Below, piece by piece: positions 44,853 through 48,607 of a DNA stretch of 64,000 nt. The translations under genes and the position numbers were made by a program. The stretch is from a phage, in sequence record PZ452578.1, one strand, 5' to 3'. The notes below the pieces were generated by a model. It saw nothing but the letters and a program-made list of their open reading frames with translations. It made no database searches and was not told the DNA's origin. Every line of letters starts with the position of its first letter. Position 1 is the first letter of the stretch.

Positions 44853-45713
44853 TTATACCGCCATTTTTCCTTTCAAGACACCGTGGGACTGATAATCTTT
44901 GAGAACGAAATCTTTAGGCCTGAGTTTAAGAATGTATTCCAATTGTTCTTTAGTAGAAAGATAGCGGAATTTATAAGGCAATCCGCCTATTACCAGTTCA
45001 CAAAGCTCTTTAGGTTCACGACGCAAAATTTCTTTACACTGTTCTACGTGATTCATATAGATATGAGTATTACCGCCAGAAAATATCAAATCTCCAGGAA
45101 TAAGATTACACATCTTAGCTACAATATGAACTAACGCAGCATATGATGCAATATTAAATGGAAGACCGAGGAAAACATCTACCGAACGTTGATACCACTG
45201 CAAATCTAAATAGCCATTACGCACATTAAACTGATAGAACATATGACAAGGCGGTAATGCCATATATTTAAGTTCAGCTGGATTCCACGCAGAAACAATT
45301 TGACGCCTATCATTTGGCAGTTTTTTAATACGATCAACAACTTCTATAATTTGGTCTACACCGCCAAAATCACGCCACTGTTTTCCATAAATTGGACCAA
45401 GTTCACCGCTATGGTATCCTAAATCTTTTGCCTGATTTTCGTAATTTTCATCCCAGACTGTTTTGCCTTGGATTAACGAATCGTGTTGAATTAATCGTAA
45501 ATCATTAACATTTGTGCTTCCTGATAAAAACCATATTAGCTCAGCAATGCATGCATTCCAGGCGAGCTTTTTAGTTGTTACTGCAGGAAAGCCTTTAGTT
45601 AAATCCCAACGCAATTTAGTACCGAACAGAGCAATTGTTCCTGTGCCCGTTCGGTCATCGGTTTCATAGCCATTTTCAAAAATGTCTTTAATTAAATCTT
45701 GGTATTGTTTCAT
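44853..45713 (-). CDS. td: Thymidylate synthase, uninterrupted
   Basis: 286 aa continuous ORF, T4 TS length; active-site region ALPPCH present. Confidence 0.93.
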   Translation of the reverse strand: MKQYQDLIKDIFENGYETDDRTGTGTIALFGTKLRWDLTKGFPAVTTKKLAWNACIAELIWFLSGSTNVNDLRLIQHDSLIQGKTVWDENYENQAKDLGYHSGELGPIYGKQWRDFGGVDQIIEVVDRIKKLPNDRRQIVSAWNPAELKYMALPPCHMFYQFNVRNGYLDLQWYQRSVDVFLGLPFNIASYAALVHIVAKMCNLIPGDLIFSGGNTHIYMNHVEQCKEILRREPKELCELVIGGLPYKFRYLSTKEQLEYILKLRPKDFVLKDYQSHGVLKGKMAV

Positions 45714-45758
45714 TTAGTACCTTATATAAATTATAATACATTTTATGAAGCTAAATAA

Positions 45759-46106
45759 TCAATACGGTTTAGCATCAAATTTTCTCTCAATTTCAGGTGT
45801 GAAATATAATTCTTTACCACGTTTGGAAAAGCGACCAATAATATGATAATTATTCTCATCAAACGTAATATTACCAATATCCATAGCTTTCAACCAAATA
45901 TCGATATTTCTATCCAGCTTTATGTCAAAATTCCAATACAGAGAACTATTACCGAAAATACTGCAAGCGGATTCAGTGAAACAACTGCTATAAATCTTGT
46001 CTTTAGGAACTACTAATTGATAGACACCTTTAATAAACTGAGGACCCTGCCACTTTGGCTGTTTCTCGTCTTTTTCTAATAGAATAGGGTAATAATTAAA
46101 ATTCAT
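45759..46106 (-). CDS. Hypothetical protein between td and frd
   Basis: 115 aa ORF flanked by AT-rich spacers; no motif recognised. Confidence 0.6.
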   Translation of the reverse strand: MNFNYYPILLEKDEKQPKWQGPQFIKGVYQLVVPKDKIYSSCFTESACSIFGNSSLYWNFDIKLDRNIDIWLKAMDIGNITFDENNYHIIGRFSKRGKELYFTPEIERKFDAKPY

Positions 46107-46125
46107 ATTTCCGCCACGCGTTATT

Positions 46126-46710
<585 letters not shown>

Positions 46711-46965
46711 TCAAAACCCCCTTTCAATAAACCATTCAGTGGCTTTATTAGCATCAAAGAATAATTCTTCATATGTCTTTTCTTTGTTTTCAAAAACTGT
46801 CACACAAACACGTTGACATTCTCCACAGTATTCTTCTGACATACTTAAAGCGTCAGAAAACATTTCTTTAAATTCATTTAAATCAGGATTATGCAATGCG
46901 TTAAAAATTGCATAATCGAATTCATCATTCATAAATTCAAATACAAAAATCATATTACCTCCCAC
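46711..46965 (-). CDS. Hypothetical protein
   Basis: 84 aa ORF with Cys pairs (CGEC...C). Confidence 0.65.
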   Translation of the reverse strand: MGGNMIFVFEFMNDEFDYAIFNALHNPDLNEFKEMFSDALSMSEEYCGECQRVCVTVFENKEKTYEELFFDANKATEWFIERGF

Positions 46966-47619: not shown

Positions 47620-47847
47620 TTATTTTTGGATTAAGCCCATATAAAATTTAGCATCTTCAGGATACATGCCATCACAATACTCATTGGTCATAAAACTAAT
47701 AAGGTCTTCAAGAGGACCTTGGACCTCAATTTGAATACTAAAGAATTGGGTATCTTTAATGTAAGCCATACTCAAAGAAGGATAACGATTGCGGATAACT
47801 TCGTAAGTGTATTCAAAATCAACAATATCAATATTAACCTTAGCCAT
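47620..47847 (-). CDS. Small early protein, paralog A
   Basis: 75 aa from the [13 protein letters not shown] start (RBS GAGGA); paralog of the ORF at 48334-48564. Confidence 0.7.
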
Positions 47848-47876
47848 TTTATTTTCCTCATGTAGTTGATAGGGTA

Positions 47877-47906
47877 ATAGTATCACACTACTACCCTTAC
47901 TGTAAA
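47877..47906 (-). promoter_or_regulatory. Sigma70-like early promoter (-35 TTTACA, 18 bp, -10 TACTAT)
   Basis: Minus strand GTTTACAGTAAGGGTAGTAGTGTGATACTAT upstream of paralog A. Confidence 0.6.
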
Positions 47907-48333: not shown

Positions 48334-48564
48334 TTATTGTTCAATCAGTCCCATGTAAAATTCTGCGTCTTCAGAATCCATGCCATCACAATATTCATTA
48401 GCCATAAAGCGGGTAAGGTCTTCAAGAGGACCTTCAATGACAATAGAAAAATTGCAATAATTGGGATCATCATGAATACTTGTGATACTAAGTTCAGGAT
48501 AACGATTACGAATAATTTCTTCGATATATTCAAAATCAACGATGTCAATATCAACTTTAGCCAT
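48334..48564 (-). CDS. Small early protein, paralog B
   Basis: 76 aa from the [13 protein letters not shown] start (RBS AAAGAGGAA); shared motifs with paralog A. Confidence 0.7.
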
Positions 48565-48607
48565 ATTATTTTCCTCTTTAATCATCAGCAGTATTGCCGA
48601 TAGTTGT

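Follow-up and report, generated by a model that had tools for sequence, protein, structure and literature searches.

A small conserved gene in the frd-td interval of T-even-type phages and its absence from T4

Introduction

Phage T4 serves as the reference in studies of phage nucleotide metabolism, and the overlap of its frd and td genes is a classic example of gene overlap. In the T4 genome (NC_000866), frd occupies positions 145109-145690 and td starts at 145112, the frd stop and the td start overlapping by 4 nucleotides (nt) at ATGA with no open reading frame (ORF) between them. The corresponding interval was analyzed here in a stretch of 64,000 nt of phage DNA (PZ452578.1, hereafter the window), in which the genes for dihydrofolate reductase (frd) and thymidylate synthase (td) are separated by 412 nt that hold a gene for a protein of 115 amino acids (aa), ORF115. 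An earlier note on this DNA had rightly described the tight linkage of the two genes in T4, and had suggested that the ORF lying between them here, with AT-rich flanks and no recognizable motif, may be a lineage-specific insertion.

Modular shuffling of small ORFs has been described for T4-type genomes in connection with promoter-stem-loop (PeSL) cassettes (PMC2839356, PMC4122927). Another relevant group is formed by the optional endonuclease genes of these phages, the free-standing seg and mob genes and I-TevI of the td intron.

Results

The interval studied (45714-46125) coincides exactly with the space that separates the td start (45713) from the frd stop (46126), the two genes being on the minus strand, and ORF115 (45759-46106, minus strand) is the single ATG-started ORF in it, as the earlier note had reported. 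It is a genuine and strongly conserved phage protein-coding gene and not a chance frame. The protein is 100% identical to YP_009290497.1 of phage vB_EcoM-UFV13 and is conserved in 590 phage records (tblastn), and the annotated frame shows good codon usage, which is poor in the two alternative frames. The ratio of nonsynonymous to synonymous divergence (dN/dS) was 0.02-0.13 in comparisons with T2, T6, KFS-EC3, TadeuszReichstein and two Mosigvirus-type phages, and 0.02-0.07 once TadeuszReichstein was set aside; against PTK, dS was 0.79 and dN 0.036. These values are as low as those of td and lower than those of frd, and ORF115 is under strong purifying selection. The comparison of composition with the neighboring genes, which had been proposed in the earlier note, revealed no difference: the G+C content (31.9%), the G+C content at third codon positions (GC3, 28.4%) and the codon adaptation value (0.66, against 0.55-0.75 in the neighbors) are within the range of the adjacent genes, and codon usage is similar. 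Therefore, nothing marks ORF115 as foreign DNA, and a foreign-DNA signature was rejected.

The distribution of the gene among related phages was then compared with that of the T4 arrangement. ORF115 DNA was present in 363 phage records, each match covering at least 80% of the query, while the surrounding frd-td DNA was matched in about 557. The direct T4-type junction, counted with a 45-nt probe able to seed only on that junction, was detected in only 32 records; all of them share one and the same 45-mer, and T4 with its laboratory derivatives accounts for about half of them. ORF115 is thus the majority state in Tequatrovirus. A third allele was observed in UPWr_E4, Shinka and others, where the place between the two genes is taken by an unrelated basic 68-aa ORF, named C, coupled to its neighbors by ATGA and TAATG overlaps. 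The proposal of a lineage-specific insertion is largely reversed in its polarity by these counts, and by the presence of homologues at the same junction in nine genera. An ortholog at this position in T4 and in all its relatives had been named as the finding that would speak against an insertion; the gene is absent from T4 and present in most of the relatives.

The junctions themselves were compared in order to describe how the two states differ. The flanking genes are alike in T4 and the window (97-98% aa identity for Frd and the part of Td encoded by exon 1), and the last frd codons and the first td codons are identical, with 0 nt between the genes in T4 and 412 nt with ORF115 in the window. 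A 9-nt direct repeat, TAAATGAAA, was found at the frd stop (left copy, 46124-46132) and at the td start (right copy, 45708-45716), both on the minus strand. When one copy and everything between the copies are removed from the window, the T4 junction is obtained letter for letter. The same 9 nt occur nine times in this genome, against 3.3 expected, since they form a common stop/start junction. The left copy overlaps a mini-ORF of two codons (ATG AAA TAA, 46121-46129, minus strand) that overlaps the frd stop; td, too, begins with ATGAAA. The ATG of the mini-ORF is the td start in T4 and the start of the 68-aa ORF in the C-type allele, and in NHEP36 the ORF start lies directly at the frd ATGA. 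Junctions of overlapping codons therefore supply the microhomology for a precise loss of the cassette. It is likely, by parsimony, that ORF115 was deleted in the T4 lineage and that its presence is the ancestral as well as the majority state, because the outgroup genera and most Tequatroviruses carry it; the direction is one that we infer, since recombination is rampant in these genomes.

Homologues with 28-45% identity were detected by tblastn in phages of Klebsiella, Enterobacter, Citrobacter, Pectobacterium, Salmonella and Kosakonia and in other T-even-type phages. The family occupies the frd-td position in the Tevenvirinae genera Tequatrovirus, Mosigvirus, Jiaodavirus, Mosugukvirus, Moonvirus, Kanagawavirus, Gelderlandvirus, Roskildevirus and Tegunavirus (the last with a paralogue, B, described below), and also in two metagenomic contigs. 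In the annotated loci of JD18, PM2, Merlin, ZX14, CIP9, S16, Cronus and PTK the homologue was always located between frd and td, and outside Tequatrovirus stop/start codon overlaps with frd, with a paralogue or with td are usual at these loci. The identity to the window protein in four other genera was 33-45%, and that of Frd 42-51%; this parallel divergence fits vertical descent. Additionally, lateral exchange of ORF115 among coliphages is evident from the sequence comparisons, as dS against NHEP36 was 0.66 for ORF115 and saturated (about 2.1) for frd and td.

Up to three small genes were found in one frd-td interval: A (the ORF115 family, to whose subfamily A the window protein belongs), B and C. 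In most genera these genes form a chain, each stop codon overlapping the next start. The second ORFs beside A score 25-46 bits against the family profile and share with A the motifs Q..W, G.Y and GRFxKxG....F, and were therefore assigned to a paralogous subfamily, B, which is distinguished by a 22-residue insertion, a loop, after the conserved Q..W. The order A-B-C was observed in CIP9 and in a metagenomic contig (L018), A-B in PM2, Merlin, ZX14 and S16, B-A in Cronus, B only in phiR1-RT, C only in Dhakavirus, and C in some Tequatrovirus genomes. The interval can thus be described as an array of three slots, of which different lineages have retained different ones. In Erwinia phage Cronus (L015, 2065-2803) the order frd-B-A-td is inverted with respect to the frd-A-B-td of PM2, Merlin, ZX14, CIP9 and S16, and its B protein is enlarged to 144 aa; a tblastn search with this long B-type protein did not reach Aeromonas or remoter T4-type phages.

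The C ORF (68-69 aa, pI about 10) was located at 801-1007 in both L007 and L008, at 872-1078 in L021, at 1578-1784 in L020 and at 4670-4879 in L018. The C proteins of CIP9 and L018 are 68-81% identical to that of Tequatrovirus, and those of Dhakavirus dhabil and Tequatrovirus UPWr_E4 are 97% identical, which suggests that C may have been exchanged recently between these two genera. No similarity of C to ORF115 was detected with the family profile (-0.8 to 2.4 bits), and the DUF4858 label given to C in MZ502379 was not reproduced, no Pfam match being obtained at E values up to 0.001.

The presence of A is independent of the td intron: T6 carries A and the intron, the window A without the intron, T4 the intron without a cassette, and C occurs both with and without the intron. 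Since all of the combinations occur, a linkage of A to the td intron or I-TevI by co-conversion was rejected. As a separate observation, the td gene of the window lacks the T4 group I intron and I-TevI, and its identity to T4 falls from 96% over exon 1 to only 88% over the exon 2 part, with the step at the intron insertion site.

The profile and structure searches that the earlier note had suggested led to a single family. ORF115 matched PHROG 1928 from end to end, with residues 4-111 aligned to positions 2-125 of a 126-position profile (E 3.3e-36, 124.9 bits); this family carries no functional information. No relative was found in Pfam, NCBIfam, PADLOC or the PDB sequences, which agrees with the absence of a recognizable motif noted before. 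The only Pfam match of ORF115 was HlyIII (E 0.041, below the cut-off), the 24 aligned family members gave only scattered single Pfam matches, and the best hit of the PDB sequence profile search was dynein (E 0.04), considered as noise. An exhaustive profile search of 1.84 billion representatives returned 23 matches, corresponding to about 21 genuine clusters, all with proteins of 95-119 aa; the long matches P0021 and P0024 were rejected as spurious, repetitive eukaryote-like sequences. Q16, W19, G27, G91, K95 and G97 are invariant in the family, L9, Y29, N79, F93 and F102 are nearly invariant, and no acidic or histidine residue is invariant, which makes a nuclease or another metal enzyme unlikely.

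A monomer model of ORF115 was generated with AlphaFold2 from the 24-sequence alignment, with a predicted local distance difference test (pLDDT) value of 91.9 and a predicted template modeling (pTM) score of 0.84; the five models had pLDDT values of 89-92. The predicted elements are strands b1 (6-12), b2 (27-34) and b3 (62-64), a helix (68-77), a short strand (80-82) and a hairpin (86-96/99-104). In its order of elements, the modeled b1-b2-b3-helix-b4-b5 arrangement fits the oligonucleotide/oligosaccharide-binding (OB) fold. The model suggests a small aromatic-rich alpha+beta domain with OB-like strand order, in which the conserved residues (Q16, W19, G27, Y29, G91-R-F-x-K-x-G97 and F102) would be placed in loops and in the beta-hairpin, as expected of a binding surface. 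No significant match to known folds, OB folds included, was obtained when this model was used in a structural search. The weak matches were mostly OB-fold proteins (RPA14/32, single-stranded DNA-binding proteins (SSBs), Stn1-Ten1, RMI1/2, Teb1, HIN and RuvA domain I), and among viral models all of the matches were uncharacterized T4-type phage proteins.

The two spacers that flank ORF115 differ in composition, and the AT-rich flanks described in the earlier note apply to only one of them. The 19 nt that separate the frd stop from the ORF115 start (AATAACGCGTGGCGGAAAT, 46107-46125, minus strand) have about 47% G+C and include a Shine-Dalgarno-like GGCGG 4 nt before the ATG. At both ends of this spacer there are A-tracts whose length varies among phages, and their variants result in separate genes, in Frd extended by 11 aa, or in a full Frd-ORF115 fusion. 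In the commoner variant (BECP11, PTK, PhiZZ30) a 204-aa Frd runs 11 residues further, over the ORF start. In the fusion allele (L022, 2050-2110; GCA_002061505.1, MXST01000001.1; compared with 46107-46132 of the window), the A-tract at the frd end has five A's and the one ahead of the ORF ATG has three; the frd stop is thereby removed, and the product is a natural in-frame Frd-linker-ORF115 protein of 316 aa (WP_146639004.1), found on four contigs.

The 45-nt spacer that leads from the ORF115 stop to the td start (45714-45758, minus strand) is indeed AT-rich, with about 16% G+C. It contains the td Shine-Dalgarno sequence AAGG and a promoter-like stretch (TTTAGCTTCA, 10 nt, TATAAT), and a sigma-70 scan placed TTGATT-18-TATTAT here. 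Tequatrovirus alleles have about 30 nt of this spacer that are missing in PTK and NHEP36, whose alleles are of the Mosigvirus type. Promoter-like sites in the frd-td region were no commoner than in shuffled sequences and no terminator was found; judged from its letters, the promoter-like stretch is a putative promoter at most. The stretch 45730-45755 resembles the layout of a T4 middle promoter (a MotA-box-like element plus a -10 element), with one mismatch and a short spacing, and is statistically indistinguishable from background. An Rfam search for non-coding RNA in the interval gave nothing below E 0.3.

As to the surrounding genes, td (44853-45713, minus strand), without an intron, encodes 286 aa and lies downstream of ORF115, and frd (46126-46707, minus strand), upstream of it, encodes 193 aa with 97% identity to T4 Frd. 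The minus-strand cluster runs in the order gp32, six small ORFs, frd, the gap, td, two small ORFs and nrdA. The frd-gp32 interval holds six small ORFs (FRD3, FRD2, FRD3, DUF5417, DUF7247 and an 84-aa ORF) against three in T4. The 84-aa ORF (46711-46965) had no Pfam match, and the two Phage_FRD3 genes (47620-47886 and 48334-48585, 88 and 83 aa) are paralogous, while T4 has a single frd.3.

Discussion

The best explanation for these results combines an evolutionary and a mechanistic part, and as a whole it was given a probability of roughly 0.4. The evolutionary part, that ORF115 is an accessory gene of the T-even frd-td transcription unit of which T4 and a few close relatives retain no cassette, is very probable. 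The mechanistic part, although it is the preferred mechanism, is tentative and, taken by itself, rather unlikely: ORF115 would be expressed together with Frd and Td and would bind Frd, Td or their complex inside the phage machinery for the synthesis of deoxynucleoside triphosphates (dNTPs), possibly as a dispensable adaptor or modulator. A non-enzymatic nature of the protein is indicated by the lack of a family match together with the lack of an invariant acidic or histidine residue. A partner that acts on the two enzymes or on the dNTP-synthesis complex is proposed because the family keeps its place within the frd-td unit across nine genera, the codon overlaps couple the gene to both neighbors, the constraint equals that of td, and tandem paralogues have been retained; the natural Frd-ORF115 fusion lends it weak support.

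The main rival is an accessory protein for host interaction or counter-defense, with no link to folate or thymidylate metabolism, that would bind a host protein or an immune sensor and be kept, swapped or lost according to the host, the junction merely tolerating small cassettes. This rival is about as probable as the preferred mechanism, and thus rather unlikely as well. The polymorphism in Tequatrovirus, where the place is held by A, by C or by nothing, is what would be expected of such a protein, as are the lateral exchange indicated by the low dS against NHEP36 and by the nearly identical C of Dhakavirus and Tequatrovirus, the dispensability of the gene in T4, the absence of an enzymatic motif, and the confinement of the family to enterobacterial T-even-type phages (the about 21 clusters mentioned above). 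Against such a protein speak the position shared by nine genera and the divergence that tracks Frd, the codon overlaps to two metabolic genes, and a very strong purifying selection in which no fast arms-race evolution was seen. Moreover, no known defense-related family was matched, PADLOC covering defense and not anti-defense proteins.

Two further readings are improbable. In the first, A and B would represent an unrecognized fold and, in the form of homodimers or A-B heterodimers, would act as a separate "junction peptide" that physically links dihydrofolate reductase to thymidylate synthase. In the second, ORF115 would be a small OB-like nucleic-acid binder, either acting on the frd-td message as a translational or mRNA regulator or binding single-stranded DNA and helping to tether nucleotide synthesis to replication. 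The predicted strand order and the weak structural matches described above point in this direction, and W19, Y29, R92, F93 and K95 would lie in the elements where OB folds usually hold their ligands (the b1-b2 loop, b2 and the b4-b5 hairpin). The OB-fold proteins RPA14/RPA32, SSB, Stn1-Ten1 and RMI1/2, however, have the order of elements in common with the model but no sequence similarity to ORF115, and none of the structural matches was statistically significant.

A free-standing homing endonuclease gene, or a remnant of one, inserted between frd and td is largely refuted and was rejected: although T4 lacks the gene, which is flanked by conserved genes on both sides like a seg or mob gene, is labeled "putative homing endonuclease" in MZ501106, MZ501050 and MZ501089 (BASEL collection), and has mobile elements nearby in some phages (an endonuclease beside td in phiR1-RT, and I-TevI with the td intron), no GIY-YIG, HNH, LAGLIDADG or PD-(D/E)xK match was obtained in Pfam for the window protein or any of the 24 family members at E values up to 1-10, no acidic or histidine residue is invariant, its 115 aa are below the size of known seg and mob enzymes, its orthologous position in nine genera with a Frd-like divergence is not sporadic, and its presence does not follow the td intron. 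According to the BASEL paper, such endonuclease labels came from comparative genomics and not from sequence motifs. In Yersinia phage phiR1-RT (L017, 3380-4108) a homing endonuclease gene was observed on the opposite strand immediately after td, which indicates that true mobile endonucleases also target this neighborhood, separately from A, B and C.

ORF115 is already catalogued as a hypothetical gene (PHROG 1928; YP_009290497.1), and no paper that mentions it was found in the literature search; the A/B/C array, the proposed deletion mechanism, the confidently predicted orphan fold and the Frd fusion are added here. In the collection searched, the overlapping frd-td arrangement of T4 is a rare derived state (32 against 363 records), and in most of the relatives the frd-td unit codes for one to three additional small proteins. 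At least one family of these, A/B, is constrained like td, has no Pfam model, and has a confident predicted structure without a match. If these proteins act on Frd or Td, a part of the machinery that makes dNTPs in T-even phages has been overlooked, T4 being without the gene; if they act on the host, the frd-td junction is a compact and easily engineered accessory slot.

Like the seg and mob genes and I-TevI, ORF115 is an optional gene in the nucleotide-metabolism cluster, absent from some close relatives and surrounded by mosaic local identity; it differs from them in being much smaller, without a nuclease motif, under strong purifying selection and at an orthologous position across genera. 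The likeness to the PeSL cassettes is that small ORFs of no assigned function come and go, or replace one another, between conserved genes by way of short junction sequences that they share; the shared sequences in the frd-td interval, by contrast, are stop/start overlap motifs (TAAATGA...) and not promoter-stem-loop cassettes.

In protozoa and plants, dihydrofolate reductase and thymidylate synthase (DHFR-TS) form one bifunctional protein with the order DHFR, connecting element, TS. There is no homology between that protein and the phage arrangement, and the Frd and Td of T4 work without A. By analogy, however, the order matches that of frd, A and td, and one phage variant fuses Frd to A. If the bridging role considered above were true, most T-even-type phages would run a coupled DHFR-TS unit of which T4 would have lost a component.
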